From Dipteris shenzhenensis (taxonomy: Eukaryota): 64,000 bases of DNA. A program made the translations under genes and the position numbers. The notes under the pieces are model-generated. The model saw only the letters and a list, made by a program, of their open reading frames with translations, was not told where the DNA came from and searched no databases. Of the stretch, positions 2,802-35,000 are shown in pieces (position 1 is the stretch's first letter; every line of letters begins with the position of its first letter). Where the stretch lies: NCBI GenBank assembly GCA_047967505.1, contig CM106538.1. One strand, 5' to 3'.

Positions 2802-5800
2802 CAGTTAACTTTGCAGACCAGTCTTGAAAATAGCCAGTGATGTTGGTTTTGTACTCGTCGTCGTAAGTTGCGTAGATTGCAGTCACTGCATTCAATCCGA
2901 TGAAGTCTACTGATCCCCGCAGACTCACAGATTGCTCCTCCGTGAACGTTGGCAGTCGCGATCCCACCACTTCTCGCATCACGGCAGGGTAATCGCCATA
3001 CAAAACTGGATCCAAGAACCTTTAAATCCAGCCAATTTGAGCCAAATGTCTCCATTATTTCGATCGATGCCCAAACAATGCTACTCGATACTACTTCGTT
3101 CACGCGGTTCAACATAGAAATCGGGCAACAGTGCCGGAGAACCGTCTCTCGAAATCATGGAAGGCGAGCAACAATTGTGGGAGAATAGTCCGCCGGTTCG
3201 GAAAACTTCCGGCACAATGAGGGAGGCAGAACTAGAGAGGATTACTCACCATCCGACTGTGAAATCCGTTGCTCTCTGAGCAGCTTCTAGATCTGAGGTC
3301 GAATTCGAGAGCGGCTCAAACCATCTGAACCAGATCACCATCCCGATTTCGCCTTCCTGAGTGGGCTGCCGCGATGTTCTGAAATCAGCAATGCAGCGTC
3401 GAGACAGCTGAAATTGAGGTGAGAAAAAGGACGGAGGTAGTACCTGATGGTACTTTCTGTAGACATCAACAGCAGCCGCATGAGCAAGAAGCATGTTATG
3501 GCCAGCGATGTAGGGTTCGGTGGCGGAATTCCCGACGGTGCAGTTGAAGGGTCCCAAAGATGGGAGACCCATGCTGCATCTTCCGGGAGGACAAAAGGTT
3601 CCGGCGTAGGCAAACGGCAGGAAATCGTTCCCTTCTTCAAAGGTGACCCAATGCTTGACGCGATCCCCGAAAGCAGTGAAGCAAACATTGGCGAAGTGCA
3701 CAAAATCGTCTCTGTAGCGAACAAATTTGTGTCGTCAAACTTTCCGTGTTGCCTCGGAAAAGCAAGGGAAAGGAGTTGCAAGCATTAAAAAAGAAAACCT
3801 CGAAGGGCGGGTAATTAGAAATATCGATTTCTGAATTGAAATCACTGAATCAGGAGAGAGAATTTCTGTTGAGTACGCACATGAAGAGCGGATTTAACAA
3901 TCCTCCGTAAGTATCTTCGAGCACTTGCGGCATGTCCTGCTCATACAGAGCTACGTGGGGCTCGATACCTGCTTGAACGAACGTCCCACAGCTACTTAGC
4001 TTAAATCCATGAAAAGTTACTACTAAAGAGCCTGTAGGTATGACGGAAAAATTTCGGCAATGAATTAGTTCGGCGAAGCGAACGTTTCCGACAGTAACAG
4101 AGCAAATGTTTTCGCCCGAGAGGTCTGAAAAGTAATACCTGCGGCAATGAGACTATCGATGAGCTGGTTGTAGTGCGCCACGGCGAGTTCGTTCACTTCG
4201 CCAGTGCCATCTGCGGGCAGAAGGCGGGATGAGCAGATTGAATCCAAGGGAGGCGGACAAAAACTGTGGAAGAAATTTCTGAGACGTTACTTGGAAACAA
4301 TCGCGTCCAGGCAATCGACAATCTGAACGAGTCCATGCCCATATCAACAAGCAGTTGGATGTCTTCCTGCAAAAACCGTCAGGAGCTTTGCTTCCTCATC
4401 ATGAACACACTCTAATTAGTTCTCTAAATCTTTTCTCTAAACTAGTGTGGACATCGGAGCTGAAGCTTGAGAATAAGAGCTCAGGTAGGTTGTTAGTTAC
4501 AGGATAGCGATAGAACTGGTTGCTACCGTTTGCGGGAGTAGTGCCATCAAAAACAGCTCCTGCGCATCGGAAAGAGAACTGTGTGCTTAGAACGTCAATG
4601 AGTTTGGCAAACAGAAAATTCTAAAGTGCATAAACGCAAAGACGAGATCACAGTTGGTAGGCTTAATGCAACGACAAGCATGAAGGACAATGACAAGGAT
4701 GGGCAAATCGTTCACAATTCCGCAACGTAATCCAAATGGGTTGAAGGTTGAGATTACGAACCGTCCTTAAGCGAATAAGCATCCCAGAGGCTGACTCCTT
4801 TTCCGTCCACAAGAGTTGCAGCTTCGTGCTGCAAAATTCGACATTCAAGAGAAGCAAAATCGAAGTTTGAAAATCTGGGAGAGAGGAGGACGAACCATTG
4901 GAATCGAACCAGGAACGAAGCATTGATTTGGCAACGAAAGTTGTCTAAAGAAAGGGAATGAGATCAAACTGAAGCATGAATGTGAAAAGGAGGAACCGAA
5001 ACCGCATCGAAGCTAAAACGGAAACAAAGCACGAGGCTCTCAAGAGATTTAATAGGAAAGTGAAACGGAACTGCAAATGTGGGAGCCCCGGAAACACGCG
5101 AACAAAAGCTTGATGATCGAATCAAAAGCGGCACGTCGGCACCTGACGTGTGGAGGCGTTATGACTAGTCACGTGTCTTGTGAATCGTGATCTCGTCACG
5201 ACTGAACTCAGTTTAAGAGTCTCTCTGAACACAATTGCGACAACATGACATCTGCACCGACGTCCTCCAACGGGAGACACCTCCCACAATCGCTGCTTGC
5301 CTCTCCACATTCCGCCCCTTCGCCCATTTCCTACTTCGACATTTCCCGCTACTCCAACAAACGCACACTGCTCTCTCTGCACAGTGTCTGTTACTTCGTC
5401 TAGCTCCATTCATCCAGCTGAGGAGCCTTTCTCATCAATATCCCCCTTTTGAAAAATGCAACCCCCCCCCCCCCCCCCCTTTTTCTCTCACGCGCACCAT
5501 CAGACACCCTCCCTCCATCATTCACTACCATGACCGCCCTTGCACATTTTCTGCTCCCACAACTTATGCCTCACCTTCATCGCCCACGACAGTGCGCCGA
5601 ACTTGAAGCCCTCCGGAAAGGCATTGCGGTCGATCCAGGTATCATTGGGGAAGACGTCGCTGAAGCTAGCGCCAGGCCCGGAATTGCTGCTGGGAGTCTG
5701 GAGAGCAGAGCAGCTGGAAGGGGAAATTAGCAAAGCGACGAGAACAACAGAAAGAATAGGAAGGCGGCAGCAACTCGAGCACTGAGCACAGAAACCTCTG

Positions 5801-10952: not shown

Positions 10953-10984
10953 CATTAGGGAAAAAGGGAACTCATTTTGGGGCC
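10953..10984 (+). repeat. Left terminal inverted repeat
   Basis: 28 of 33 aligned positions match the reverse complement of 21024-21056. Confidence 0.8.
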
Positions 10985-11700: not shown

Positions 11701-14002
11701 ATGCAGGAGATAGCCATTCGTGCAAAATTGGAGCAGCAGTTGCAGAATGAAATTGAGGAGCATTCAAAGAGTAAAAAAGAGTTGACAAGAGCAAGAAAGA
11801 AGAGAACCGTGCTTGGAGACAGACTACGTAGCAGGAAGATTAAAAACATTGCAAATTTGAAGGCTGGGACTGGTGGATGCAAGCGACGAATTCAGGAAGC
11901 AAGGTTAGATTGAAATTTATCATTTTGTATACTCAAAAAGGCTCTCTTCCAGACTATATCTATTTCGTCGATTGTCGCAAAATAAGAATGGAGGTGCTGA
12001 ATGATATAGTCATATTGTGTTGTTACTACAGGAAATTATTGGAGCCTACAAAAGAAAATATGGACCCGAACCTTCTTCCTGTTAAACAAATGAAAGGATT
12101 GCTTTCTTGCGGTGTAGCAAAAGGTTTGATTGAGGAAAAAAAATACAAAACAGTCAAACGCAATGTTGTAGAGGACTTTGTATCCAATAATCAAGTTGAT
12201 GGCACTATAATCCAAGAGGCTCTTGATGTTAGTGGAGTTAGCAAGAAGGGATATAGTTTGATTTTCCATGCGATATCCTCAACTTTGAAAGATCAAAGGA
12301 TTAAACGAGTTTTATTGCCAAATCCAGCAACCGTGTGGAGGATAAGAGGTCATTTGAATGAAAGTATAGATGAATTTATTGGGCAATATATCCATATTGA
12401 AGAAATATTTCATGGTGTTAAAGGAACCACTGTGTATGATCCTTGGAACAATATATTTTTAGATCTGCAACAACTTCAAAAAAGAATGGTCGAGTTTTAT
12501 GGAATAACATTTGAGGAGTGCAAAGGCATTTTGAAATTTGTTATCAAACTGGATGAGTGTGAGGTTGTAAAGGAAAAGAAAATGGAAAGAGTTACTATTA
12601 CATTGATGAATGGAGCAATTGATACATCATTGACTGAAGCGAGTTCGAAGTATTTTAGTGTGCAGTCAGAGAAACACATATGGTGGTTAGGCTCGTTCCA
12701 GGTATGATCATTTTTTGTTTTATACTTGATTTTGGTCATTGTTTTCAAATTTGTTATAGTAATACTTTTGTTTTCTATAATCTGGCAGGTGAAGACCGAA
12801 GACCATGAAACACTAGATTGGGTGTTTCACCACACGGAAATACCAAGAATAATCAAAAGACAAGTGCAAGGCGAGAATCTCCATGTTGCAGGAAAAGGTG
12901 ATTTTCAAGTAGAGTGGCACATGGCCGGGGATCTTAAAACACTTAAGTGCATGTATAACATTAGTAAAGGAGGCAACTCAAAGTCTCCTTGTCTTTACTG
13001 CAAAGAATCAGCTCAAGTAATGGATTCAAAATGGTGGAAGAGAGCACCTAATAGAGATAAAGTTGACCCTGACTTCAAGGCCATTCTGGACATTCCACTA
13101 TGTAATGTTCACATCTGCACATTGCATGGTCTATGTCGAATTATTGAGAAATTGGTATTTTTATATATTGGATTTGCTTGGAAACTCCATCCCGAAAAAA
13201 ATAGAAAGGATGCTCTTCAAGCATTGGAAAGAGTGTTATCCGATATAGATCTGCATGGAGGAGATGTTCAAATCACAAAGGATTTTAAAAAGTCTACCAA
13301 TGGCAAGGAGGTACCAATCAAGCCCTCTATTGGTGGTGTTAAGGCAAGAAGATTCTTGTCTCAACCCAAACATAGTAAGCAAGTAAGGCAAGGTAGAACA
13401 GTTTCAAAGATTAATTATGGATTGTGGAAGCAAGTCCATAATGCTGTGAAAGATCATGAGGCAGATGGGGAAGCACGAAATAGGAAGGCAGAGGTGTGGA
13501 GGTCTCTTGATCAACTCTTCATGTTCTGTGACAAAGTAACATGGACAAAGAGTGATTACAAGAACTTTGAGGAGGCAATTAAACATTTTGGAAAGTCAAT
13601 GAAAGACGCGTGGACAGCCTGCAATATAACTCACTACATGGTAAGGTTATGTCTTTTACTTTTACTTAAGTGTGATCCTCTTTTTTTTTATTACTTACTA
13701 TGCATTCTTATGTCTTACAGCATATCATATACAACCACCTTCCCTATTTTGTCAAAAATTATGGATGCCCAGCTATTTGGTCTACCCAAGGCATGGAGAA
13801 GTCTCACTACATGGCACGTAATGCATTTTTTAGACACACACAACACTATGGAGGGAGTCAGAAGGCAAATAGTCTGAAGGAAGTCTTCCAATGGTTTTAC
13901 CGAGGCATACTACAGAGGCTGCATGCTAAAAGAAAAGTTGCTAGCTCCAAAATCAAGCTTGCTTTTCTTCTAGCCCAAAAGCAAGACGAAGACAAGCTCT
14001 AG
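11701..14002 (+). CDS. DDE transposase, RAG1-core/Transib/Chapaev-like; core frame open, termini probably damaged
   Basis: Exons 11701-11903, 12032-12701, 12789-13640 and 13721-14002 join in frame (668 aa) at GT-AG sites. Motifs: SGVSKKGYSLI...LLP, FVIKLDE (D at 12552), WHMAGDLK (D at 12930), CLYC, CTLH, THYMHIIYNHLPYFVKNYGCPAIWSTQGMEKSH (E at 13796). An in-frame TAA at 11683-11685 cuts off a probable longer N-terminus. A likely 1-bp deletion near 13980 shifts the original C-terminus (stop ~14088). Confidence 0.8.
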
Positions 14003-14412: not shown

Positions 14413-16320
14413 CTAATTCTCCCAGGGCCTGCCGATCGGAACTCTCTTTTTGATCTTGATTGGAGTCTTTTTCTTCTTTATTGGCTTGATGTCGACTGTC
14501 TCTTTATCCTTTTCTTCAGCTCTCTCCACCTGTTCCTCTTCTTGGACTGTGTGGCCTGATGCAATCATGGGTGGCTCTCGAAACCTTACGAGCTGGTGTT
14601 TTCCATAGCCCTCCAGATATTTGGGCTCCTTAACACCACATGCTAATGCATAAGAAGTGTAAGACAAAAAGTAAGCGGCCCTAGAGGCCTGCTTATTCAC
14701 ATAATCTCCAAATATATCTATGGCAGACAACCTCTCTATCAAAATGATCTTTTCCTTTTGCCATGAAAGAACATGTCCACCTAAAGCCCTGGACAAACAT
14801 TTTAAGAAGTAAACAATGGCTTCTCCATTGTTGCTCAACTGCCTATGGTAAATCAAGATCTTGGCACTGCCTAGATCATGAATATAATAAGCTAGGCCTG
14901 ACATTTTGCGAAACCCAACCTGCCTGCTTCCACTTGATCTCTAGAGGAATGTGTCATCCTCAATTTGTAGCTGCCACATATCAAAGGATTGGAGTGAGAC
15001 AATACACAACCTACAAAAACAAAGTTAAGCAGAAGTCAAAGTATTTGATTTGAAGTACCTTCTCATTTTCATTAGCAACAAGTAGTTCATCTTTCCAAAG
15101 ATTTATCCCTCTCCCCTCTTGTCCAGCCTCTTCTTTAGGCTTTTCTGTGTATAGTGTTAAGAGATTCATAGCTTCCTGTGTGAGCTGGAAGGCAGCTTCA
15201 TCTGGCTCTTGGAACTTTTCAGCCTCTTTGAAACAAAATGAAAGGGCCTCTACAGGATCAAACATTGTTTCCAAAGCCAGTAGTGAATGGTCATCCTCTA
15301 TGCCAACCTCCTTGTCAAGCCTTGAAGCCTGGGCAATAAGGGAAATGGCATAGTCCTCCCTCAAATTGAGCATACACTCTATATCATGGAGGAAAACATA
15401 ATCCTTTCCACCAATCAACACACCTGGAAGCATGGGCACTGCATAGTTGCTGCTCTGAACATCAAAATCTTCAACTGGCTCTGCTCCCCTCAGTTTTTGT
15501 CCTCAGTTGAACAAGGTCAAGAGCAGCCACTTGCAGCCCCTCATCCTGAAGGTTGATATCTTCTTCTTGCTCTGCCATTTCTGTGACCCTTTTCCTCCTT
15601 TTCCTCTGCTTCAGATGTCCTCCTTTTCCTCTGCTTCAGATGTGTCTTCTTCTTCTATTTCCTGCCCTTGTTCATCCAAAGACTCCTGACTGAAGACAAT
15701 GTATATAAGAAATGCCATGCTCTCCTCTAGCACTCTGCACTTTCTGGTGTGCAAAGTACAGTTGAATTTATAGTGATTAGGCAGGCTGTCAAATCTTCTG
15801 TTCACATGGTACCTCAGCCTGTCATTGGAGACAATATGATTTATATGCACAAAAACCTTTTCTCCTTCCACAATTCTTCCTGCCTCTGTCAGGGTCGTGG
15901 CAGGGATGAAAGATTGGGAGACAGGGGAGGGAAAAGTGGTTGTAGTATTGATTATGAAATCATGAATGGCACAAGATCCAAGGCATAAAGTGTACTTTCA
16001 CACGTGCCAGAATTCAAACTCCAAGAGATCTGGGTCCCATCCACACGTGTGAAAAACCACTACATTCCACACGTGTGGGATTTAGAGATGCTTTATTCTA
16101 TTTGCACTTATTTGTGGTATCCTATTTTAGACCTCTTGCCCTCCAGTCTCTACTCTCTTGCCTCCCTACCTCCATACTCTGCAACATCAGCATCCTGTCC
16201 AGCAGCACAGGTTCATCCTCAGCACAGGTTACTCATCAGCAGCACAGCACATCCACAGATAGATTCCAGGTCAGTAACAATGGGTTCTCCGCTTAGTCTC
16301 TGCAATCTTCTTGCCTACAA
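14413..16320 (-). pseudogene. Unknown cargo gene convergent with the transposase; acidic middle and Lys-rich C-terminus; disrupted
   Basis: Consecutive minus-strand coding-like frames at 15611-15871, 15011-15439 and 14413-14904, separated by stops and frameshifts. Glu-rich stretch and KKKK-rich, NLS-like end. 5' boundary uncertain. Confidence 0.55.
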
Positions 16321-16534: not shown

Positions 16535-16875
16535 CAGCATGCTGCCTCATGAATTTGCAGCAAAATGCGAGGAGAAGGCCTTAGGAATTTCAAACAGCTG
16601 AAATCGCGTTTTGTTGCAAATATTGAAATATTGCTTCATCAACCCCTGTCATTCTGGTTTTGTGACTTCCATAGCTGTAATCTTCTTGCATAAACTCCAT
16701 TCATACTGTATTTAGTTGGAGAGACATAGAAATCACTGTAGGAGTGCACCAGCATGTCATTTCAAAATTTGCAGCAAAATGCGATGTGGACCTGTTTGAA
16801 ATTCCAAACTGCTCATATCGTATTTTATTGCAAATTTCTCTATATGGCTTCATCCACCCCTGTGATTGCCTTTTC
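16535..16875. promoter_or_regulatory. Putative divergent promoter region containing a ~120-bp degenerate direct repeat
   Basis: CCAGCATG...AATTTGCAGCAAAATGCGA...TTCATC(A/C)ACCCCTGT occurs at ~16535-16655 and ~16748-16870, between divergently oriented cargo genes. Confidence 0.4.
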
Positions 16876-16942: not shown

Positions 16943-19008
16943 ATGGCAAGAACCAAGTCAACTGCAAGGAAAGTTGGCAAAGGGCCAGGGCTTGCAGCAA
17001 TAGCAGCTGGGGCAGGTACCAAGAAATTTAGTGTGCCTCCAAAGGGAAGAGTTGCACATGGCAGGAAGGGTAAGCCAATGAGCTTGCTCAAGCAAAAGGC
17101 CAAAAGATTGAATCATGGTGCAGGTGTGCTAAGGGAGATCAGGAGGCAATAGAAAGCTATAGGCTTTGCAATACCCAAAGCACCCTTTCAAAGACTGGTA
17201 AGAGAAATTTGTGGCAGTTGGAACCTTGGGTTCAGGTGGAATAGAACTGCCATTCTTTCCTTACAGGAAATGGCAGAGGATTACTTGGAGAAATATTTTG
17301 AAGATGCAATGCTTGTAGCAGCCCATGCTCACAGGGTGACTTTGATGGCCAAAGACTTCAACACTTTGTCCAGAGTGAGATGGAGGTATGACAAGCTTGT
17401 TCATCCTGTGGAATGGCAGGACATCAAAATGAGAGACATATTGCTAATTCCACCTACAAGGAAGTTAAAGGTTGATGAGGTAAAGGTTGTTGAGGTAACA
17501 CACTCAAAGAACACCAGAGGGAAGGCTGCTTATAAGGACTCATTGAAGCAGCAAATAAAAGAAACAAAATCTGTTATAGATGTGGAGACTGAAAAGAAGG
17601 AGCTACAGATACATAGAAGGTTGAAGGAGCTGGGCCCTGATGTAGTTGTTCATATTGAGGATGAAGTTTCAGTGAATGATTTTGACTTGACAAAACAATG
17701 CTTAGCAGCATTGGCTCATAAGAATGAGTATTGCTCAGATACTATCATTCTTGCAATGCTCTAGTAAGTGTCTATAAATTTTACATTTTTTGCAAATCAA
17801 TCCTCCTTGTACCTCCTTTATAACCTACCCTAATTACTTTCTGATCCTATGCAGCATGATGAGAAGCTGGCTTCACCCCTCTGTACAGCATACAGTCCAT
17901 ATTGTTGATCCAGCCATTTCTTCTAAATTAAGAGATGCAAAGGAGACTCCCATGAGTATTTCCAGCTGGTTCAAACACTACAATTTTGAAGTAATTGATG
18001 TTTTGCTACTTCCATACCATAGCAGGTATATGGGTGACTACTTCTTTTAAGATTCTTCTTTAAGATTGGGAACTCTTGTAGCCTTTGATTTTCTTATGCT
18101 TTTTTCCTTATGCAGTGACCACTGGAGTTTTGTTTCTATTGACATCCAGCAGAAGCAATGCTTTCTATTCAACTCTCTAAAAAACACACATAGAGAGCTG
18201 AAATTGTAAGTGCTGTGTGTGCTTTTTGAACTTAAAACTTCATTATTTTGATATCATACTAACTAAATTATACATATTGCAGTTGTATTTTGCAGTTGTA
18301 TTAGAAGGCTTTTAGATGCATTGGATCACTGTCCTCCAAATGTCTCTCTTTTGGATTCAATAGAGCCAATAAGTCTAGAGGTAAAAAGTCTATTAAATGC
18401 TATGTCTTTGAACTTATTGAATAATTTTATTTTGTGCTGATGCTAACAGTTTCTAACATATCTTTCTAACTGTACAGACACCACAACAAAATGATTCAAG
18501 TAGCTGTGGATGGAGAGTGCTGATCAATGCAAAATATATACTTTCAAGCTACTTTGAGAAGGAACAGCCAGACCTGGTAAGGAAAAATACTTTTCATTTA
18601 GCTTGAAGATAATTCATAATGATACAAAGTGTTCTAAATTATCCTCTGCCATTGCAGATGAAAGAGGATAGCTTCAGCTCCAACTATGTACATAATTTTA
18701 GAGCTCATACAATTTGGAGGTTTTTGAGCTATGCCTCCCCCAAACCTATTGTACCAGCTACTATGGAGCTGGGTGAAAGCTCTAAAGTACAAGAAGGTGT
18801 CATACACCTTGATCCCACAAATGAAGCACCTAATGCTGAGGACCAGAAGCCACAGGAGCAATCACATAGTGCTGAGGAGGAGCAAACACAGGAGCAAAGA
18901 CCTGCTGCTGATGTTGAGGAGAAGGTGGAGAAGCAGCAAAGAGAGGCTCCTGGGGCAGTGGAGGAGACAGGATGGAGCAGCAGAGAAAAGATCCTCCAGA
19001 AAATGTAG
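16943..19008 (+). pseudogene. Histone H3-like protein fused to a Ulp1/C48 (SUMO) peptidase domain; one premature stop
   Basis: Exons 16943-17763, 17855-18025, 18116-18205, 18296-18380, 18478-18576 and 18658-19008 join in frame (~538 aa). N-terminus MARTKSTARK; histone fold VLREIRRQ*KAIGFAIPKAPFQRLVREI...FEDAMLVAAHAHRVTLMAKD; C48 motifs LLLPYHSSDHWSFVSID...FNSL and PQQNDSSSCG. Single TAG at 17150-17152. Confidence 0.85.
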
Positions 19009-19124: not shown

Positions 19125-20564
19125 TTATGGAGTCTGTGTTATCTCAATTTTTAAATTTTCGATGTCTTTGCATTTTATTGAGCTCTCTCTTCTTTTGAGT
19201 AACTGCAAAAAAGCAATATGAATCAGAGTGGTAAATTAAACTAATAGCAATGCTTAATGAGACTAGGATAAATCAGATGGTGTACCTTTCTGTTGTTGTA
19301 GATAAATAAAAAGTCGTTTGAGATAGAACCTTCAGTCTCAAATAGAATGTCACTGCGCAATTGAGCTAGGGAGCAACATTCTCTAAGTGAGATATTGACT
19401 AGCACATCACCATTCTCAACAACATCAATATCAATAAGTTTATTTTCTGCACCAAAAGACTCTTCATCTTGATCCATTGGGACAAGCTTTGTGCCTAGCA
19501 TTCGACTGCGCTTGTAATAAAAAGAGAAAATAAAATTTTGTGATGCAACCATGTACTTCAGTTGCATAGAAGGTTGGACCACCTCACAAAACACTGAACT
19601 ACATGTCTTCTTATCCCAACCTTTATCCAAAAATTGTGGCATGCATGCCGAATTTGTTGCTTTAACTGTGAACATTGTTTTTGAAACCTTCACTGGAAAG
19701 GTATTAAACAAGTCCACAAAAACTGTGAGAGGCATGCACAAAGAAATTTTTACTATCCTAGTGGCAATATTGAGCCTCAGAGCTTTCTGTACTTCTGTAA
19801 AAAGCTTCGCCCTATATGCCTCTGTAACACTAGAATGTGGGTGAGGCCAATCCACTGAATTCCACGCCGGAAGGTCTTGTTTTATTAATACACCATGTGT
19901 GTTAGCTTTGTCCAGCAACTGATAAAAATGATCAATAAAAAATATACCCGATTGAGCTAGCTCTGTTGCACATCAACCTTGGTATTGTTGTTCTCCTATC
20001 GATCCATGCAGAACATCTATAAATCCCAGAATACAATCGATGTTTTGCCATGTCTCATACGATGAAGGATATAAATCTGAAATAAAACAACACAAGAATG
20101 TCAATAAGCTAAGAGAGAAAGCTTCATCTTAAAAATCCATACACCTCATGAAGAAAAAAACCACAATAGAAAAATATACAATTAGGCCTGTGTTGCGGAA
20201 GATTTTTTGGATAGTCTCGCAAGACAAGTTCTTTATGCATGTACACGTGCTGAATCAAAACTTCTTTCACGGATATCTTCCCTTTGGTGATTTTAAAATC
20301 TCGTACTCTTCCCTTCCATGACGCCAAGAAAATGTTTTTTGTCTGGGGTCTTTTTCTTTTGCTAGGTTGCATGAGCACCCATGCTCCTTTCGAAACACTA
20401 AACCTTTCCCAAGTTCCTTCCGTTTTGACTGTACTTGAATTCTCTATCGACGAAATAGAAGCAGCAGGTCGACGGGGTAAGGATGTTTGGTATAATTCTG
20501 CCTTCGTAGCATTATCATCCACAGAGCGTCTTCCACAAGAATGGCCGTGGTTTTGGTTCACCAT
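19125..20564 (-). pseudogene. BAH-domain-like protein with C-terminal ubiquitin-like region; one premature stop
   Basis: Exons 20180-20564, 19286-20076 and 19125-19202 join in frame (~417 aa), possibly with an extra upstream exon at ~20676-20860. BAH-like pattern VSKGAWVLMQPS..WKGRVRDF..VLIQHVYMHKEL..HRPNYLYPSSYETWQNIDCILGFIDV..FFIDHFY. TGA at 19973-19975. Confidence 0.65.
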
Positions 20565-21023: not shown

Positions 21024-21056
21024 GGCCCCAAAATAGAGCTCCATTTTCTCCTAATG
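21024..21056 (-). repeat. Right terminal inverted repeat
   Basis: GGCCCCAAAATAGAGCTCCATTTTCTCCTAATG, inverted relative to 10953-10984. Confidence 0.8.
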
Positions 21057-26032: not shown

Positions 26033-29000
26033 TCATTGACCTAGTGCCAATCTCTGGACAATGCCCTGGGTTAATGAAGAGGGGTTTGATAACGTTGGCT
26101 GAAGTGAACTTGGATTCACATGGCTCTCACTTTTCTCCTCCTTTGGCACCAAGGCCATTTCTTGTCCAAAAGATGGAGCTCTCTGCAGCAAGTGTCCGCT
26201 GATTCCTGGATTCATCATGCTCATTGAAGTTGGGATCAAGGTCTCTGAACCTCCTCCGGAAAAGTCCAAGCTGATGGTCCTGCCATAGCCCTTAAACTTA
26301 TCCTGCAGCAACTTCCCCATCAAACATTGATCATGTAGTGAGGTAGTCCTTGTAGCTGTATTGGTACTGGAAACATTGGCGATGGTATGAGCATTGGGAA
26401 GAGGAGCCGCAGTGACAGCTGATCCAGCACTATCGTGACTGCTGTTTCTTGCAGCTGGTACATCGTGATTATGTTTTCCCTCATATGTCGTTATAACAGC
26501 TTTGGGATCTGTTGACGAACGTTCCACATGTTTTCGAACAGAGCAGCCCAGGTTTGTACATTTATAGTAGCTCCTGCATCATGCAGGCAAGGTAGGAATC
26601 AAGTTGATACCTCCAAAGCATCCATACAGGCGCATCATTCCTTCAAGCATACCTTATAGTGACATTAACACATTCAGAACCTATGTCTGGCCTCAATCCA
26701 CATTAATCTTTCTCCTTCTAGAGAGAACATCAACCCATTTACAATAAATTGTAGTCCATCAACTCTTGTGAGATCAATAAAAAATATACTCTTCACTATT
26801 ATCTCCTCCAACGTAAAGCACATACAAAAATGGGGTATGGGGAAGCACCCACCCGTGTGCCCACATGCACACCCCCCATGAAGATTAAAACAGCAACCCC
26901 ATACCAGCAAGCACACAAATTCATACATGCTCACATGCAGACATTCAAATGGACATGTGGGCATCAATTAACGTACAGATTCCTTTTAAGAAACACAAAT
27001 TTCCCATGTTTCTTTTCCCAATCTACATCCCCAGTGCAGCACTCCTAATTGCAAGATGAAAATCTGTTGAAAATACAGAATTATATGTCACTTTGCTATA
27101 GTGATGTTTGAGAATGATGCTCTAACAAGAAAGATGCACTTAAGCAAATAAAACCACGATATAAAGCAACAAGATAACCTGACATTCGTCAGTATATAAG
27201 TATTGCCCAAGCTCCATCAAACATGCGACTGGTTATCATGTTCTCCCTGGACCTTGTACTACTACCATTCTTTTCAAAATAAATTGACTTGCAATAGCTC
27301 CTTTGTAGCATATGGCCTAACTCATAAAGCTATTCTCTGCTTAGGCCTACATCCGTTGTAGCCAAATGCCTGATTTTGAAATTCAAGGCTTCACTATAAA
27401 CATTTGACCTTCTGAATCAACACTTAGAATAACCATTGTATCCCAAACTTTCCTGTTTGTGGCCTTCGCAAGTATGCGACATATGTCCACACACTCTTTG
27501 GCAAGGTTAACTTTTTAGCCCACCGTCAACTGAAGGCAAGTGCAGGCCCTTCACACGTTCCCTCTTCCCAAGGGAAGCAATCAGACAGAGGACCCTCAGG
27601 ACATCCCATAGACACCTAAGGGAAAGATCTGGCCTTGTGTAGGGACCAGTTTGGCCACCCTTTTGGGGCATATAGCCCGACCTGCAGGTTGGCTATCTAG
27701 CAGAGGTGGGCTGACCTCTTGGTCGGCCTCCTAGGCTGGAGCACAGCCCCTTTTAGGGCAGGTGGAGGCCAGCCCCTAGTGGGCCTGATATAGGGGCCAG
27801 GAGGAGCAGTCGGCCATGCAGCAGATGGGGGTTGCCCCCCCCTAGAGCTGGGTCGGCGGTTTTCTAGGGCAGGGGGTCAGCTATACGCCCCCCTGTTGGT
27901 CGGTTGGTTGAGGCTGGGGTTGACCCTATATATAGGGCCCCCTCCCCTCATTTGTTTTCATCTTCTCAGGTGGTTTTTGCCCAGTGATATAGAGGGATTT
28001 TACCAGGAGATCACATGTGCAGTCTCTCTCCCTTTCTCTCCCTCTTTCTCCCTGTGTGCATTTCTTTGTTGAGTGCTCTCTCACCCACAGTGTGTGTCCA
28101 TTCCGCTGTGCACTCACATGGTATCAGAGCACAGATTGGCTCAGGATCCTAGAGGGGTGGAGAGGTCGTAGAGCCAGCAAGCTGTGCGGAGCTATAGGCC
28201 AGGAGTATGAGGCGTTTCCAGGGCAGAACGTGCGTGGAGGATTTGAGAGGGAGACATGGGCTGTTTTAGGTTAAGAGGGGGCGTTACAGAGGCTGCTGTT
28301 TTCGTCCAGAAACCTCTTCTTTTTCCACCCTGTCTCCTCCCTCCTTGTATAGATCTATGCAGACCAGCAAAGTGTGGTGTTCAAGGCGAGATTGATTGAG
28401 CAGTGGACTGGGAGTGTCAGAGATTGAGGTGCCTAGTAATTCAGCCTGAGGAGATCTAGAGGTGGGACAAGAGGGTGGAGTTGCTGCAGATTTCCTTCTC
28501 CAACAACCTTGACAGCCCCTTCACATCTGTTCTTGCCTGTATCTCTTTCTCTTAGTATTCTTTCCAACCACTCTCCGTATTCTCTCCTGTTTTTTCCACA
28601 TGGCTGATATGGCAGAGAACAAGACGAGAATTCCAGTGTTGCCCACCTTCCCGGTAGACCGGCAGTTGGATGGGCTCAATTAAAGCATCTAGCGGGTGAT
28701 GATGGAGTCTGTGTTACAGTCATACAACCTGGTAGATTTCATCTTGATAGGTGTTGCTCGACCAGATCCCCTGGCAAAGGACCTTGGCATCTTGGAGGAG
28801 CAGGAGGCCGAGACCCTGTCTCAGCTCTGGGACCGTGTCAATGCCAGTGTAAGATCCTTTATATTTCTTAACTGTACTCCTCAGGTGATTAATCATGTGA
28901 AGCACATGACAGTGGCCAAAAGTATATGCGAGCATTTGGTGTCCACGTATACCCAAACCTCTCCCGTGAAGAGGGTTTCATTGGAGGTCCAAATGAGGTT

Positions 29001-32000
29001 GTTGGATCCTAAGAAGTCTTCATCGATGCAGGACCACATCAACAAGTTAAAGGAGCTTCAGCAGAAGATCCTCCAGGCAAGGAAGCAAATATCATCCGAG
29101 GACATGGCCATAACTCTACTATCCCAATTATCCTCTCAGTATGGGGCCTTCTATTCATCCTTGATCACCAGTGGTAGGGTGAATGAGTTGACCTGGGAGG
29201 AATTGGTCCCCATGGTGCTTGACCAGGAGGCGCGCTTCGTCGATCGTACCTATGACAGTCAGCCCAAGGCTCTGACAACTGATTAGAAAGGCAGAAAGTA
29301 GTTGACAGCTGAGGAACGAGAAGCTCTTGAGGCATCCCATATGTGTAACCGATGTGGCCAGAAAGGTCATGATTGGCGTCAGTGTCCCCCAAGGAACGTT
29401 GAGGGGGTCCAATAACCAATTGGCCAATAGTGTTGTTGCTGCGACCATGTATACTCCAGCCTTCTAGTACCACGAGGCAGGCACTACCAACAGGCTTTCC
29501 AGATCTAGATGGAGGATTGCTTGCATGTTTGTAGCAACGAGACCTGCCAATCAGGTGCACGCGGAAGGGAGTCATTGATCGAGGCAAGCTTTCACGCAGA
29601 ACCTCGAACCACAAGAAGTTGATCCCGCTGACTCGAGTGGCAGTATGTTACCAGTTTGTATTTTTGTTTAGACATTATGACCTGGCAGATCCAGAGGGGG
29701 TCTCCTAGTGCTCTGCTGCAGCTATTGTCTGATGCTGCTGAAGATCCGGATGGGTCAGTAGATTGCCAATTCGGGAACCCAGACACAGTTGATTGATCCT
29801 TGTGAGCTGTTATATGCCCGTTGCCATTGGAGCACTAAAGTTCATCGATCTGGCGACAGTGTACCAATTTGAACTTGAGATGGGGCTTCAGAGGGGGCTA
29901 TCTAGCTCTACGATACAGGTGCCCATCCAAGGAAGCAGACCTTGCACCGGAGGCAGTATCAGTTGGATTATTGTTCTAGGATCCTCTATTAGAGTCATGT
30001 ACTAGGTACAGCAGTTGGATTGTTGTACCAGATGACCCAGTGTATGAGTATCAAACCACAGGAGTATTCCTAGCACCAGTGGCCTGGGAGCAAGAGTTTC
30101 AAGTTTCCAGCAATTGTGTTGAGGCGGTTCGTGCCACAAGGGGGCTTCTTCCACACTACTTGTAGCGGTCTTCAATGGTGGAATCTGGACCATCACACAA
30201 TGGATTCCTCCAGTTGTTCCAACGACACACCCAACTCCCTTGCATCTCTGTTCCATCTAGGAGCTGAAAGGGGGTGTTAGAGGTCAACATCAATTAATGT
30301 CATCTAGAGAGAGGGCTTGCTTGTGGCTGTGCCCGCCTAGTGAGTGAGGCTAGGGTAGATGAGTGAAGGCCATGGTTGTGGGTGTGCCCGCCCCCTTGTG
30401 AGGCTTAGGTAGAGTAGGGGTTGGCACGACTCATGGCATAGGTTGGGGCCCTCTGGATCTATTGGCACGATACCCTCTGCTAGAGGGGTTGCTGCCCATG
30501 TGCGGGGCTGTTCAGGGCCTTCCTGAGGCTTGCTTTGCTACCACGAGGCAGCCCCTTCTGAGGCACCATGGTTGGGCTTTTTTAGGGGCCAATTCGGCCA
30601 CCCTCTTTAGGCAAATAGCCCGACCTGCAAGTTGGCTATCTAGGGGCCAAGAGGCAAATGGCGGTTGGCCCCCCCTAGGGCTGGGTCGGTTTTATAGGGC
30701 AAGGGGGCGGCTATATGTGAAGGTGAAGGAAAGAGGGAGAAGTACAAGAGGGAGAGGGTGAGAGAGAGGAGAGACACTCAAGATGCGGGTGTGAAGTGAT
30801 GAGCCACACCACAAACTCCTAAGTTTTATTAGGATTAGGTTTTCCCCCTATGACTGTCTTAAGACAGTCATAGGTGTCATATCTTTAATAAAGGGGTGGC
30901 AATGTGCCTTTACCCCAACAACCTCCCACCTAAAGGCCAATATGCCTAAAGGGGAGAAAAGAATAAAAATTACAGCAATATAAAGTTACTGTATACAAGA
31001 CCATAAAATAAGAGTGGTCTCATCCTAATCCCATGATGTGGCGGCAATGTGCAAACCGCTCTGTAGGCAAGCTCTTAGTGAGCAAATCTGCAGGATTATC
31101 ATCAGTATGCACTTTCACAAGCTCAAGTCGCTTGTCTTCCAGTACCTCCCTGATGAAATGATATTTCACATCTATGTGCTTGGTCTTTTGATGAAAGACC
31201 GGATTCTTTGCCAACATGATAGCACTCTGACTATCACAATGCAAAATTGGCATATCTCCTGTAATGCCCAAATCTCCCACCAGCCGAGTAAGCCATATTG
31301 CTTCCTTGCAAGCCTCAGTGGCTACAACATATTCAGCTTCAGTAGTTGACAGTGCAACGCATTTCTGCAACCGAGACACCCATGATATAGCACCTCCTAC
31401 AAATGTGAAAATACAACCGGTAGTAGATTTCCGGTTATCTGCATTCCCTGCATAGTCTGAATCTGTAAAACCATGCACCAATGCATCCTGCTTACCATAG
31501 CATATGCACAAGTCTTTGGTACCCTTGAGATACCTCAAGACACCTTTCACTGCTTCCCAGTGCCGCTTGCCTGGATTTGCCATATACATGCTGATGACTC
31601 CCACCGCAAAAGCAATATCCGGACGAGTGGCAACCATGGCATACATCAAAGAACCAACTGCAGATGCATACGGAACCTTGGCCATTTCAGCCTTATCATC
31701 ATCTGATCTGGGGCTGTCCTTACTGCTGAGTTTTAAATGTGGAGGCAACGGGGTACTAATAGACTTCCCCCCCTCCATTTTAAACCTCTGCAATACTTTG
31801 TCAATGTACTCCTTTTGTGACAGAAACAAAAGTCCCTTGGACCTGTCACGAGTAATCCGCATGCCAAGAATATGGTTTGCATCACCCAAGTCTTTCATGT
31901 CAAAAGACTTATGCAGTTGTTTCTTTAAAGCACTAATCTCATGCTGAGATTTACTAGCAATCAGCATGTCATCCACATATAGAATGAGTAGCATCAAACT

Positions 32001-35000
32001 GCCATCCTTTGCCCGTTTGGTGTACAAGCAATGATCAGTCTCACCTATGATACCCTTGAGACTGCATGAAGGCATCAAACTTCTTGTACCATTCTCTTGG
32101 TGCCTGCTTGAGTCCATACAAGCTCCTTTTGAGCTTACACACAAGCTGCTCTTTCCCTTTAACAGCATATCCCTCTAGCTGACTCATGTAGATCTCATCA
32201 TGGAGATCTCCGTGAAGAAAAGCAGTCTTCACACCCATCTGACATAAATCCATGTCCTCATGAGCAACAAGAGCTAACACTGCTCTCAAAGTAGTCATCT
32301 TGACGACAGGGGAAAAGATCTCATCAAAGTCAATGCCCTTCTCCTGCTTAAATCCCTTGGCAACCAATCTGGCCTTATACCTCGGTAAAGCATTTGAATC
32401 CACTTTGACTTTGTAAACCCACTTGCATGGCAAAACCTTTCTGCCTGCAGGTAGCTGCACCAAGTCCCATGTATCATTTTGAAGTAAGGAGTCCATTTCT
32501 GACTGCATGGCTTTCTCCCACTTCCTTTTCTCTGTTCTTCCCATAGCTTCCTTGAAGCTGGAAGGCTCACCACAATCTGTCAGCATGATAAAATCAGCCA
32601 CATTGTTGGCTCCTGGAACAAACCTGTCAGGAGGCCGTTGTACACGGGTGCTCCTTCTAACAAAATGTTCCGGATTAGGCTGCTGTCCAGCCTGTTCGTC
32701 ATGCATGACGGGTGGCTGTACCACCATATCTGGCTGTTCTACAGCCCCATCTGCTGGCATATCCAGTGGTGCATCATTGGCAAAATTATCTGGCTGATTT
32801 CCAGCCTGTATACCCTCTTGAACAGGGTTATCTGCAGCAGCCTGCTGCTGCATATAAAAGGGCATTCTTTGCTGTCCAACATCATCATAAATAACCCTCC
32901 TGTATTCCACAGGTTGCACGGGTTCCTTGTGTACACTATCCTCTTTAAAGATGACATCATTGCTGCGTATAATCTTCCGTTTAATGGGATCCCATAACCT
33001 GTACCCCATTTCACCTTCGTCACCATAACCCATGAAGATGCATCTGAGAGACTTTGGCTCCAGTTTGGTGCGCAGTTCTTTGCGTACATGAGCAAAGCAC
33101 TCGCAGCCAAACACACGTAAGTGCTTATATGAGGGTGGCTTGCCAAACCACACCTCCTCTGGCACTTTCAACTCCAAAGCCTTGTTTGGCGACCTGTTAA
33201 TAATGTGAACTGCTGTTTGCACGGCTTCTGCCCAAAAGCCATGGGGCAATGCAGCATAAGACAACATACATCGAACCTTCTCCTGAATAGTTCGATTCAT
33301 CCGCTCACTTACACCATTTTGAGATGCATTATGAGGGGCTGTGAGTTCCTGTTTGATGCCCTTAGCTTCGCAAAACTGCACAAAAGCATGTGACACATAC
33401 TCACCCCCATTATCGGATCTGAGGCATTTCAGCCTGCGACCTGTCCGATTCTCAACCTGAGCGACAAACTTCTTGAAAGCATCTAAGGCATCGCTTTTAT
33501 GCTTCAAGAAATAGACCCACACTTTACGTGTGGCGTCATCAATAAAAGTAATAAAATACTTTGCACCCCCTAGTGATAACTGTGGCATCTCACACAAATC
33601 AAAGTGCACTAGATCAAGCGGTGCTCTATTCTGGGGAGTTCTCCTCTTATGAGGAGTCACAGAATGCTTGCCAAATATGCAATGATCACAAGTAGGCAAA
33701 TCTGAAAAAGAAAGAGACGGCAGATAACCCAAACGTGATAGTTCTTGCATTCCTTTAACGGACATGTGTCCCAACCGGCTATGCCACAATGAAATCTTTG
33801 GCAGCTCGGTTATGGCAACAACATGATTACCTACACTGGAAACATAAAGAGGGTACAAGGTATCACTCTTATAACCCTCAGCCACTACAACCTGGCCATC
33901 AGTAATCACCCTGGCCATCAGTAATCACCCATTTGGAATCCCCAAATGTGGTGTGGTAACCACTGTCATCCAATAAGCCAGTGCTAATCAGATTTTTCTT
34001 GATTTGCGGCACATGGCGAACACCATCAAGCATAAATGACCGTCCATCAGGGAATACTATCTGTATACTGCCAATCCCTGCAATCTGACATGCATAGTTG
34101 TTCCCAAGGTGAACAACTCCATGAGTACCTGTGTAAGAAGTAAACCACTCCTTATGAGGAGTAACATGAAAAGAATCACCTGAATCCAAGAGCCAGGTGT
34201 GCATGTCATGGCCATCAATAACCAATGTGTGTACAATTACAGCAGAAGAACATAATACCTCATGTCTGTCACTGTCACTGTCCTCTGCTGCAACATTCAC
34301 TGCATCCAAGTCATCTACCTTGGCCTTGCCTTTGCCTTTGCTTCCACTGCTTGCATCCTTTGCTTCAGCCTTCTTGGCTTTCTGATCCCGTATAAACTTA
34401 AAGCACTTAGACTTCACATGTCCCTTCTTGCCACAATAAAAGCATTCAATATCCTTTTTACCACGGGACTGACTGCGGGATTTGGACTTACTAGCAGATC
34501 TCCCCTTCTGCTGAGTCCTGCCTCTTTCCTGTACCTGCAAAGCATTTGAAGACTTGCTGCCCGCATTATTTTTCCTGCTCATCTCCTCCATGAGGAGAGA
34601 GCTCTCCACATCAGCATACATAAGAATGACATTTGAATTTGACAGGGTGGTCTTGAAAGTGTCCCAACTCTCAGGGAGGGTACACAACAAGAAGGTAGCC
34701 TTGAACTCCTCATCAAGATTCAAACCCTGTGCAATCAGCTGTGTAAAGATGGCATTGAACTCACTCAAGTGTGAGGTCATAGTTGTACCTTCCTTCATGC
34801 GAAGATCAACCAGCTTCTTCAACCAATAAACCTTACTGGCTGAACTCTTTTGGGCATACAACTCTGCTAGCCTCTGCCATAGGCCATAAGAGGTCTTTTC
34901 AGCCTGAACATTGAACACAAGAGTATCAGAAATAGTAAGCATGATAGCTGCCCTTGCGGACAAATCAAGCTCTTCCCATTCATCATCTGCCATGTCAGAT

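Follow-up and report, generated by a model that had tools for sequence, protein, structure and literature searches.

The locus described here lies in the window, a stretch of 64,000 nucleotides of contig CM106538.1 from Dipteris shenzhenensis (assembly GCA_047967505.1). On its plus strand, positions 16943-19008 hold six exons with a joined length of 1617 nt, equal to 538 codons and a stop codon. The five introns are all of the GT..AG type and fit the splice-site consensus well, with the donors GTAAGT, GTATAT, GTAAGT, GTAAAA and GTAAGG and with acceptors ending in CAG. The first-pass annotation had proposed that the six exons join in frame, and this was confirmed together with the coordinates of the catalytic His (18120-18122) and Cys (18505-18507) codons. 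The gene is made up of the following features.

16943..17763, plus strand: exon 1, with an H3-like tail and histone fold (amino acids 1-146), an extension, a linker and the start of a C48-like domain
17150..17152, plus strand: TAG in frame as codon 70, where H3 has Gln55; the sole internal stop of the joined model
17764..17854, plus strand: intron 1, whose GTAAGT donor overlaps the TAG at 17762-17764
17855..18025, plus strand: exon 2, N-terminal lobe of the C48-like domain, matched by tblastx to positions 1277-1453 of the related contig L001
18116..18205, plus strand: exon 3, with the catalytic His and an Asn at the catalytic-Asp position; alone it scores 19.3 bits against Peptidase_C48
18277..18302, plus strand: tandem duplication of 13 nt (TTGCAGTTGTATT, twice) that spans the exon-4 acceptor
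18296..18380, plus strand: exon 4, helical part of the C48-like domain, aligning with the relatives P0010 and P0021
18478..18576, plus strand: exon 5, with the oxyanion Gln and the catalytic Cys (PQQNDSSSCGW; Cys codon 18505-18507)
18658..19008, plus strand: exon 6, end of the domain and an acidic, Gln-rich low-complexity tail; stop codon at 19006-19008

In exon 1, the histone fold is followed by an extension that is conserved in the family (RWRYDKL..KMRDILLIPPTRK) and then by a charged linker, and the exon ends within the C48-like domain, of which it encodes the initial ~35-40 residues (..FDLTKQCLAALAHKNEYCSDTIILAML). The His codon of exon 3 is CAC at 18120-18122 (DHW), and the Asn codon is AAC at 18171-18173 (FNSL). 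The low-complexity tail in exon 6 contains a 36-nt tandem repeat.

The N-terminal module is a histone H3. Residues 45-141 of the window product match the Pfam Histone family (PF00125) with 92.6 bits against a cut-off of 26.4 (E 2.8e-26), and a PDB search with the H3 part covered H3 residues 25-132 (E 1e-21), returning 176 sequences at E<=1e-3, of which the 60 listed were all H3 or H3/CENP-A chimeras. Within the fold, 35-43 of 95 positions (37-45%) are identical to canonical H3; this divergence and a Trp in loop 1 are reminiscent of CENH3/CENP-A, and the top PDB scores belonged to H3.1/CENP-A targeting-domain chimeras (80.8 versus about 76 bits). The family differs from CENH3/CENP-A, however, in its canonical ARTK.TAR start and its C-terminal extension of ~390 residues. 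Residues R40, R69, R72, H113, T118, D123 and R131 are retained in all eight members compared and R116 in seven of them. Since R63 is replaced by Pro or Leu in all eight, and R42, R49, R128 and R129 are variable, part of the canonical H3 DNA contacts is missing. AF2 modelled the H3 part of P0021 with low confidence (pLDDT 30-60).

The window protein begins with ARTKSTARKV, so that K4 and K9 are present and S10 is replaced by V, and GRKG aligns at the place of the missing ARKS motif. The retained K4 and K9 and the loss of S10 and of the K27 context had been noted in the first-pass annotation. Among the nine known family N-termini, R2, T3, K4, T6 and A7 are conserved throughout, K9 is conserved in only four, and the remaining tail diverges.

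The C-terminal half is a very divergent Ulp1/C48-like family, an assignment based on Pfam scans of relatives, a profile search of the PDB and a Foldseek search. The window itself was scanned by Pfam exon by exon, the joined six-exon model being aligned by script only: the exon 3 piece reached 19.3 bits with Peptidase_C48 (PF02902), below the cut-off of 20.7, and exons 2, 4, 5 and 6, scanned singly, gave no C48 match. Eight relatives were scanned as well. Three of them passed the Peptidase_C48 cut-off (P0022 with 34.4, P0021 with 25.6 and P0015 with 22.8 bits), two stayed below it (P0014 with 17.0 and P0003 with 15.8 bits), and P0010, P0019 and P0023 had no listed C48 match. P0021 is a single protein that carries this Peptidase_C48 match together with a Histone match (E 2.6e-23). 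Searching the PDB with the family profile gave 22 sequences at E<=1, 19 of them named as SENP, Ulp, Dub or XopD and three with generic names.

The structural comparison agrees with this picture. The C48-like domain of the P0021 model has pLDDT values of 75-93, and Foldseek found 61 matches at E<=1e-3, the best being Ulp2, SENP2 and Ulp1 (E 5e-9 to 5e-8, TM about 0.6); SENP1, SENP5 and NEDP1 also belong to the top set, which ranges in E from 5e-9 to 2e-7. The likeness to the Ulp1/SENP group (yeast Ulp1/Ulp2 and human SENP2; MEROPS C48, clan CE) lies in the fold of the model and in the family His, oxyanion Gln and Cys, which align in register. In the profile alignment, the family HWS..N..Q..CGW falls on HWS..D..Q..CGM of SENP2, with the family Asn in the column of the SENP2 Asp. 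This Asn in place of Asp, the strong divergence of the domain and its placement behind a histone H3 set the family apart from the Ulp1/SENP proteins. A self-processing polyprotein protease was also considered and dropped, because the linker showed no conserved Gly-Gly site.

The His-Asp-Cys triad of Peptidase C48 is thus altered in the window and in the family alike. His is conserved in 12 of 12 members, the Asp position is occupied by Asn in 11 of the 12 and by Ser in the twelfth, and the oxyanion Gln and catalytic Cys are found in all seven members that hold those exons. The replacement of Asp in FNSL had been noticed in the first-pass annotation; as 11 of 12 members share it, we read it as a trait of the family and not as decay of the window copy.

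The TAG at 17150-17152 falls in an alignment column with Q in all eight other sequences, canonical H3 included; P0013, which is 81% identical to the window copy, is among those with Q. Since the relatives carry Gln where the window carries TAG, the window H3-C48 copy is, judged from its reading frame, a pseudogene disabled by this stop, and the CAG>TAG-type change proposed earlier stands. The 13-nt duplication is possibly a further lesion: it places another AG 13 nt ahead of the exon-4 acceptor, only the downstream AG is in frame, and use of the upstream one would shift the frame. Rescue of the TAG by organellar U-to-C RNA editing was considered and dropped in view of the spliceosomal introns and the retrotransposon/WRKY surroundings.

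Comparison with relatives makes it very probable that a real H3-C48 fusion family exists, with the window copy as a pseudogene. In script alignments, the joined window model matched L001 over residues 1-448 (E 8e-81), P0021 over 1-411 (E 1.7e-63), P0003 over 1-422 (E 1.9e-61) and P0022 with E 1.7e-11, and tblastx of L001 against the window was collinear across exons 1, 2, 3 and 5. The annotated Adiantum proteins P0003 and P0021 have the same collinear H3-C48 architecture, which, shared with L001, upholds the earlier claim of an H3 fold and a C48/Ulp1-like domain in one gene. Contig L001 was found by a metagenome scan with a five-sequence family alignment; a scan with a single family protein gave no match. 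It supplies the stop-free relative that was sought, an intact gene with five GT..AG exons, 678 codons and no internal stop.

The junction of exons 1 and 2 is decisive for the unity of the gene. If intron 1 were retained, the H3-like ORF would terminate at the TAG at 17762-17764. The confident fold of the P0021 model begins ~40 residues before the equivalent of this junction, the Pfam C48 match begins about 13 residues before it, and the protease-only models P0022, P0019 and P0015 begin inside the exon-1 equivalent. As the protease fold begins within exon 1, the H3 and protease halves are not separate genes. The window, L001, P0003 and P0021, at 30-35% identity, moreover agree in the position and frame of the junction, and P0003 and P0021 join the H3 and protease exons at the homologous position, which speaks against the separate protease gene that the first-pass annotation had named as its own counter-case.

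About 20 family members were found in all, and the named relatives come from Pteridaceae ferns only. A phmmer search with P0010 against 1.84 billion representatives returned 10 proteins, which we read as family members (nine are listed besides the query), and none of these 10 matches is a canonical ULP. The fusion is present in several deeply diverged subfamilies. Database entries for these proteins say no more than 'hypothetical protein' or 'histone domain-containing protein', and the literature searched describes neither an H3-Ulp1 fusion nor an H3 with a folded C-terminal enzyme domain; in this literature, the H3-C48 fern gene family is previously undescribed.

Four features of the surrounding ~10 kb bear on the origin of the gene.

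19244..20092, minus strand: ORF-X, tail-to-tail neighbour of the H3-C48 gene, of no known family
11844..13999, plus strand: multi-exon ORF set upstream of the gene, without a known family and resembling RAG1/Transib solely in its language-model features
10953..10984, strand not assigned: left arm of a weak, imperfect inverted repeat of 33 bp, with its partner at 21024-21056
21024..21056, strand not assigned: right arm, partner of 10953-10984

ORF-X has a counterpart on the minus strand of L001 (3658-4533; 43% identity over 230 aa, E 1e-62). It lies tail-to-tail with the H3-C48 gene in both loci, in a setting where nucleotide similarity between the window and L001 is gone. In the window its frame is broken by a TGA at 19973-19975, at the place of an Arg codon in L001, and the NIF-phosphatase ORF that separates the H3-C48 gene from ORF-X in L001 is absent from the window. 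ORF-X gave no Pfam match and no usable Atlas match, and a two-sequence profile search gave no match; the best PDB match of its C-terminus is the UHRF2 ubiquitin-like domain, in sensible register, with E 0.68.

The ORF set at 11844-13999 had no Pfam match at E<=10 (three exon pieces and the read-through were used) and no relevant PDB match by phmmer, and it was not recognized as a transposase of a known superfamily. Its language-model features resemble RAG1 clusters with a recognition score under the tool's mark, and its single-sequence AF2 model was unusable (pLDDT 36.9). It is a possible transposase, the RAG1 idea leaning partly on a motif spacing that we take to be characteristic. The inverted repeat, found by sensitive blastn with 85% identity over 33 bp, is marginal (E 0.06); it may mark the ends of a ~10.1-kb unit, and no target-site duplication was seen flanking it. 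An exact-seed script found no terminal inverted repeat longer than 14 bp in the window, a scan of plausible unit ends found no Transib-type heptamer on the left side, and neither a MULE nor a Ginger transposase was found in the window. The general terminal-repeat search was dominated by CT/AG microsatellites. The gene lies among retrotransposons and WRKY genes.

We consider the following explanation the best overall, with a probability of roughly 0.55. The window locus is a family copy that was disabled recently, and the fern family to which it belongs would encode a chromatin isopeptidase and may be transposon cargo. The intact product is predicted to be one polypeptide made up of the H3-like module, the extension and charged linker, the C48-like domain and the low-complexity tail. 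Its C48-like domain would be a cysteine isopeptidase of the Ulp1/SENP type (clan CE) with a His-Asn-Cys triad, and the H3 module would place the protein on chromatin by forming a pair with H4 within a nucleosome or a chaperone complex; alternatively, tethering could come about by offering the H3 N-terminus to tail-binding proteins. Such tethering would bring an isopeptidase for SUMO or another ubiquitin-like protein beside chromatin substrates. An active enzyme tethered in this way is a tentative proposal, which we hold to be quite possible though short of probable. The loading into nucleosomes, binding of H4 or chaperones, deSUMOylation and K4/K9 decoy role suggested in the first-pass annotation are likewise hypothetical.

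The H3-C48 gene and ORF-X may together be a unit that is copied around fern genomes, and the pair seems likelier to be cargo of a DNA transposon than a plain host locus; overall, the chances of transposon cargo are about even. As cargo, it could serve to weaken SUMO-dependent silencing, in parallel to the Ulp1-bearing accessory genes of plant MULEs. The label 'TE-borne' in the first-pass annotation fits the context of the window gene, for which it is a tentative label. Passages of PMC2836005 and PMC13317346 place Ulp1 domains on Mutator and Ginger1 transposons and in VANC-type anti-silencing genes of VANDAL MULEs, and link the Ulp1-bearing VANDAL genes to escape from silencing. As far as these passages go, Kaonashi/KIU (VANC-Ulp1), Mutator Ulp1 and Ginger1 transposase-Ulp1(-PHD) resemble the fern family in combining an Ulp1-type domain with a chromatin- or DNA-directed module, and in having repeated, often decayed copies. 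In contrast to them, the family has histone H3 as the partner and not VANC or a transposase, and the window is without a MULE or Ginger transposase, a convincing terminal repeat or a target-site duplication. A more specific version, in which a fern RAG1/Transib-like DNA transposon carries H3-Ulp1 as cargo together with ORF-X, perhaps with a ubiquitin-like C-terminus, and uses the H3 look-alike with its protease, set into or beside the element's own chromatin, to strip SUMO-type silencing marks, would be a long shot.

A plain host gene family is the strongest competitor and a real, if less probable, possibility. The H3-C48 genes would then encode a lineage-specific H3 variant with an enzymatic C-terminal domain, following a macroH2A-like logic, and would have spread by the whole-genome and segmental duplications that are common in ferns, the window containing a duplicate of a two-gene block (H3-C48 and ORF-X) under loss. 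Architecture, intron positions and catalytic residues are conserved across subfamilies that are 30-35% identical, which argues for long purifying selection, and the ORF-X microsynteny is as expected for orthologous or ohnologous blocks. The small number of members found and the lack, in the window, of the transposon hallmarks just listed also suit a host locus. However, both linked genes are broken in the window, and in one Adiantum copy a retroelement ORF either breaks into the gene or has fused with it (P0023 continues into a gag-aspartyl-protease ORF). Copies are, moreover, dispersed over several chromosome-scale contigs, those of A. capillus-veneris lying on contigs of 158, 143 and 159 Mb and on a 57-kb scaffold. 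The ORFs in the ~10 kb around the window gene all lack a known family, one of them being RAG1-like to the language model, and, in the papers cited above, Ulp1 domains recur as transposon cargo.

It is unlikely that the protein is a pseudo-enzyme or decoy, a reading that concerns activity only and fits the transposon and the host origin alike. In such a protein, the Asn would abolish cleavage, the C48-like domain would bind SUMO or another ubiquitin-like protein, and the ARTK.TAR start would imitate the H3 tail, either titrating or recruiting its readers and writers. The near-uniform Asn, with Ser in the twelfth member, would fit this, as would the N-terminal eight residues, which are far better conserved than the remaining tail, and the loss of several DNA-contact arginines of H3. 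Retention of His, Gln and Cys in every member that could be scored is, on the other hand, unexpected in a dead enzyme, and the Asn need not abolish catalysis: papain-type triads contain Asn, and a His-Asn-Cys triad has been described for at least one viral protease of clan CE. Finally, a pair of separate genes, with the H3-like ORF stopping at the TAG at 17762-17764 and the join being a coincidence or annotation artefact, is highly improbable: the unspliced gene calls P0011 and P0012 do end at the position homologous to the intron-1 donor and several Adiantum models are visibly imperfect, but the upstream start of the protease fold and of the protease-only models, and the shared junction, oppose it, and the TAG is itself a product of the donor consensus (TA|GTAAGT in the window, AG|GTAACT in L001).

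The best known parallel is macroH2A, in which a linker joins a core histone to a globular, enzyme-like (macro) domain at the C-terminus. The H3-C48 family likewise has a full histone fold, a basic/charged linker and a folded C-terminal non-histone domain. It differs in its histone (H3 versus H2A) and in its fold (cysteine isopeptidase versus macro domain), and among named records it occurs in ferns only and is known here from sequence. Should nucleosomes or H3-H4 chaperone complexes take up the intact protein, a SUMO/Ubl isopeptidase would be delivered as part of chromatin, and such a chromatin-integral enzyme would be a new design principle alongside macroH2A. As transposon cargo, the fusion would represent a new kind of anti-silencing device and would extend the recurrent, unexplained link between Ulp1 and DNA transposons; were the RAG1-like version true, no earlier case of a histone-enzyme fusion carried by a transposon would be known, and an H3 tail would be tied to a RAG1-like element. 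The conserved His-Asn-Cys triad offers a natural test of the role of the third triad residue in clan-CE enzymes, and a small family, fern-restricted in named records, with an intact gene makes these questions directly testable.

The Adiantum gene models call for some care. P0003 and P0010 each omit one protease exon, and P0001 and P0002 omit all of them; these exon-skipping models make the Adiantum annotation unreliable, and H3-only isoforms may exist in this genus. In A. nelumboides, three members of one 90%-identity cluster lie on three contigs, and near-identical copies of this kind could be haplotigs or homeologs.

In the window, the gene fusing a histone H3-like module to a Ulp1/C48-like domain (H3-C48) is assembled from ORF pieces joined in frame, as follows.

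16943-17763, + strand, exon 1
17855-18025, + strand, exon 2
18116-18205, + strand, exon 3
18296-18380, + strand, exon 4
18478-18576, + strand, exon 5
18658-19008, + strand, exon 6

Each of the five introns is of GT..AG type and has splice sites of good consensus, and the 538-codon product is interrupted by a single internal stop, the TAG at 17150-17152. On re-reading the sequence, the coordinates of the His, Asn and Cys codons and the 17763/17855 junction in the first-pass annotation were all correct, and the CAG>TAG-type stop that it had reported is located at this TAG, which resembles a change from CAG. A 13-nt tandem duplication (18277-18302) places an extra AG 13 nt 5′ of the frame-keeping exon-4 acceptor and is possibly a further defect. 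The copy is dead, and no full-length protein comes from it.

By sequence, the encoded protein is an H3. Exon 1 matches Pfam Histone with 92.6 bits (E 2.8e-26) and, in solved H3 structures, aligns with residues 25-132 (E 1e-21); there are 176 PDB matches at E<=1e-3, and all of the 60 listed are H3 or H3/CENP-A chimeras. Compared with canonical H3 (reference sequence taken from P0005), 43 of 95 fold positions are identical, with R40, R69, R72, H113, R116, T118, D123 and R131 kept, R63 changed to Pro, and R42 and R128 lost. Among nine family N-termini, R2, T3, K4, T6 and A7 are kept in all, position 9 is K in four, R in three, Q in one and D in one, and residues 10-37 vary freely. Directly after the histone fold comes a family-specific conserved segment, R-W/H/F-R-Y-D/E-K .. 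K-M-+-D/E-L/I-L-x-I/V-P. Loop 1 of the fold (window 17230-17330, H3 loop 1 / helix 2) carries a Trp, and H3.1/CENP-A targeting-domain chimeras score slightly above plain H3 against it (80.8 versus about 76 bits); these are hints that the module's donor could be a centromeric H3.

The case for the C48 domain rests on the relatives, because the window exons, scanned singly, stay under the Pfam cut-off: Peptidase_C48 reaches 19.3 bits on exon 3 against a cut-off of 20.7, and the other protease exons gave no Pfam C48 match. In Adiantum nelumboides, the annotated 403-residue protein P0021 carries both domains, with E 2.6e-23 for Histone and, over the cut-off, 25.6 bits for Peptidase_C48. The cut-off is also exceeded by the related proteins P0022 (34.4) and P0015 (22.8), whereas P0014 (17.0) and P0003 (15.8) fall under it, and C48 is absent among the Pfam matches listed for P0010, P0019 and P0023. 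When a profile of eight protease-containing members was compared with the PDB, 22 sequences matched at E<=1, of which 19 bear the names SENP1, SENP2, SENP8, Ulp1, Ulp2, Dub1, Dub2 or XopD and the other three generic ones; 6gzu (2.5e-6) and SENP2 (1.3e-5) scored best. Against SENP2, the family HWS..yLNSl aligns on HWS..YLDSM, and Q..sCGW on Q..dCGM. When P0021 was modelled by AlphaFold2 on the family alignment, confidence was high through the protease domain, from about residue 231 on (pLDDT 75-93), whereas the histone module was modelled poorly. Searched against the PDB with Foldseek, this model gave 61 matches at E<=1e-3, headed by Ulp2, SENP2, Ulp1, SENP1, SENP5 and NEDP1 (target TM about 0.6, E 5e-9 to 2e-7).

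The catalytic His is kept in all 12 members holding its exon, and the oxyanion Gln and Cys in 7/7. Since Asn occupies the catalytic-Asp position in 11 of 12 members (Ser in P0014), it is a family trait and not damage. The third triad residue of papain-type enzymes is Asn, and a clan-CE viral protease with a His-Asn-Cys triad has been described; by analogy, protease activity with such a triad is plausible for H3-C48.

Both the sequences and the P0021 model point to a single gene for the H3 and protease halves. In P0021 the confident fold (from about 231) and the Pfam C48 match (from residue 256) begin before the equivalent of the window exon-1 end (about 269), and therefore exon 1 encodes about 40 protease-domain residues. 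The protease-only models P0022, P0019 and P0015 start within the exon-1 equivalent, and the annotated Adiantum fusions P0003 and P0021 have their exons joined at the point homologous to the window junction. The stop at 17762-17764 is formed by the intron donor consensus itself, which accounts for the end of P0011 and P0012, both unspliced gene calls, at the junction; in L001, a contig bearing an intact related gene, the donor reads AG|GTAACT and its TAA falls one codon further on. The alternative envisaged in the first-pass annotation, an H3-like ORF ending at 17762-17764 beside a separate protease gene, is thus very unlikely, since the C48 domain begins in exon 1. The Adiantum models are imperfect (P0003 is without the His exon, P0010 without the Cys exon). 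Two from A. nelumboides, P0001 and P0002, join H3 and linker straight to the last exon, skipping all protease exons, and are either mis-annotations or H3-only splice isoforms.

About twenty related proteins were found by word-based searches and exhaustive phmmer. With exon 1 as query against long proteins only, the word-based search returned nine proteins at E<=1e-3, headed by three from Adiantum; the P0003 linker plus protease returned three, and the window linker two (78% and 89% identical), which by blastp are 79% and 81% identical to the joined window model. Searching 1.84 billion representatives with P0010 by phmmer gave ten proteins at E<=1e-3, all read as H3-C48 family, with no canonical ULP among them. 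The named members all belong to Pteridaceae ferns (Adiantum capillus-veneris, A. nelumboides and Ceratopteris richardii), the remainder lying on ENA contigs.

A single locus, L001 (JAEIGA010095204.1, 4553 bp), turned up when metagenome contigs were scanned with an alignment of five sequences. The protein encoded by its five-exon gene (GT..AG, 678 codons, no internal stop) consists of an H3-like module joined by a linker to a protease domain (GHW, LMNS, QSDSTSCGW), and ends in a Pro-rich tail. Introns 1-3 share their positions with those of the window, window intron 4 is missing, and window residues 1-448 align with 35% identity (E 8e-81). Tail-to-tail with H3-C48, on its 3′ side, lies a second gene, ORF-X, in both loci: window 19244-19972 (-) and L001 3658-4533 (-) are 43% identical over 230 residues (E 1e-62), with similarity extending to window 20092. 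As blastn found no nucleotide similarity between the two loci, the linkage is old. Window ORF-X is interrupted in frame by a TGA (19973-19975) at a position that is Arg in L001, and thus both genes of the window pair are broken. Each lesion is C-to-T-like (CAG to TAG; CGA to TGA, the CGA being inferred), as would fit deamination of methylated cytosines in silenced DNA. ORF-X belongs to no known family. Its last ~75 residues look ubiquitin-like, the best PDB match being the UHRF2 ubiquitin-like domain (sensible register, E 0.68); a Ubl-like protein beside a Ubl-protease gene would be suggestive. Between the two L001 genes, on the H3-C48 strand, is a NIF/FCP1-like phosphatase ORF (2808-3371, +; Pfam NIF E 1.6e-17), which might be an additional H3-C48 exon and has no counterpart in the window.

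The odds that H3-C48 is transposon cargo and not a host gene are about even. In favour of cargo, copies in A. capillus-veneris are spread over several chromosome-scale contigs, and a 90%-identity cluster in A. nelumboides has three members on three contigs, although near-identical copies might be haplotigs or homeologs. The P0023 copy runs into a gag-aspartyl-protease ORF, and the joint decay of H3-C48 and ORF-X in the window would also suit cargo, whereas the phosphatase ORF, splitting this pair in L001 only, speaks against it. Also on the cargo side, about 10 kb around the window gene holds only ORFs without known family, and a protein language model puts the middle exon of an upstream multi-exon ORF (11844-13999, +) near RAG1/Transib-like clusters (0.95-0.96), with a recognition score that stays under the tool's mark. 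The acidic residue, CxxC pair, H-x4-H pair and later W..E of this ORF show an order and spacing reminiscent of the catalytic core of RAG1; should this hold, a fern would have a Transib-like transposase. Against cargo, the upstream ORF has no match in Pfam or PDB, and the sole inverted repeat found, 33 bp long and 85% identical, is of marginal significance (E 0.06) and has no flanking target-site duplication. A further point for cargo is that Ulp1 domains are well known, and recurrent, as passengers on Mutator and Ginger1 transposons and on the anti-silencing genes of VANC type in VANDAL MULEs (PMC2836005, PMC13317346).

In the likely mechanism, the H3 module would bring the protein to chromatin. 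It could pair with H4, in a nucleosome or in a complex with a chaperone, which is conceivable because the bundle and several residues that contact DNA are retained, or it could offer tail-binding factors an authentic H3 N-terminus. The Ulp1-type domain would then strip SUMO, or some other ubiquitin-like modifier, from proteins close by. Within a transposon such an isopeptidase would oppose SUMO-dependent silencing; as a host gene it would be a chromatin regulator borne on a histone variant. A decoy or pseudo-enzyme is also possible. H3-C48 resembles the Ulp1/SENP enzymes in modelled fold and presumably in mode of action, but falls outside the strict definition of their triad. Its context is like that of transposon-borne ULP-like genes, and its design like that of macroH2A. 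No description of this architecture was found in the papers searched. The predicted fusion protein should clearly interest those who work on chromatin and on transposons, although the copy here is dead.

The window is plant nuclear DNA; besides a LINE reverse transcriptase, it contains the following, all of it ordinary plant content.

26033-26578, - strand, WRKY-domain ORF, ordinary plant content
47610-48458, - strand, WRKY-domain ORF, ordinary plant content
31020-35179, - strand, copia-type polyprotein, with direct repeats 30718-30931 / 36848-37059 on either side
42352-43455, + strand, gypsy-type integrase ORFs, gypsy-type polyprotein content

Two long ORFs without known family (14413-15502, -) lie between the upstream ORF and H3-C48, head-to-head with the latter, and just 5′ of its start codon are two 102-nt direct repeats (16552-16653 and 16766-16867), 76% identical and 214 nt apart.
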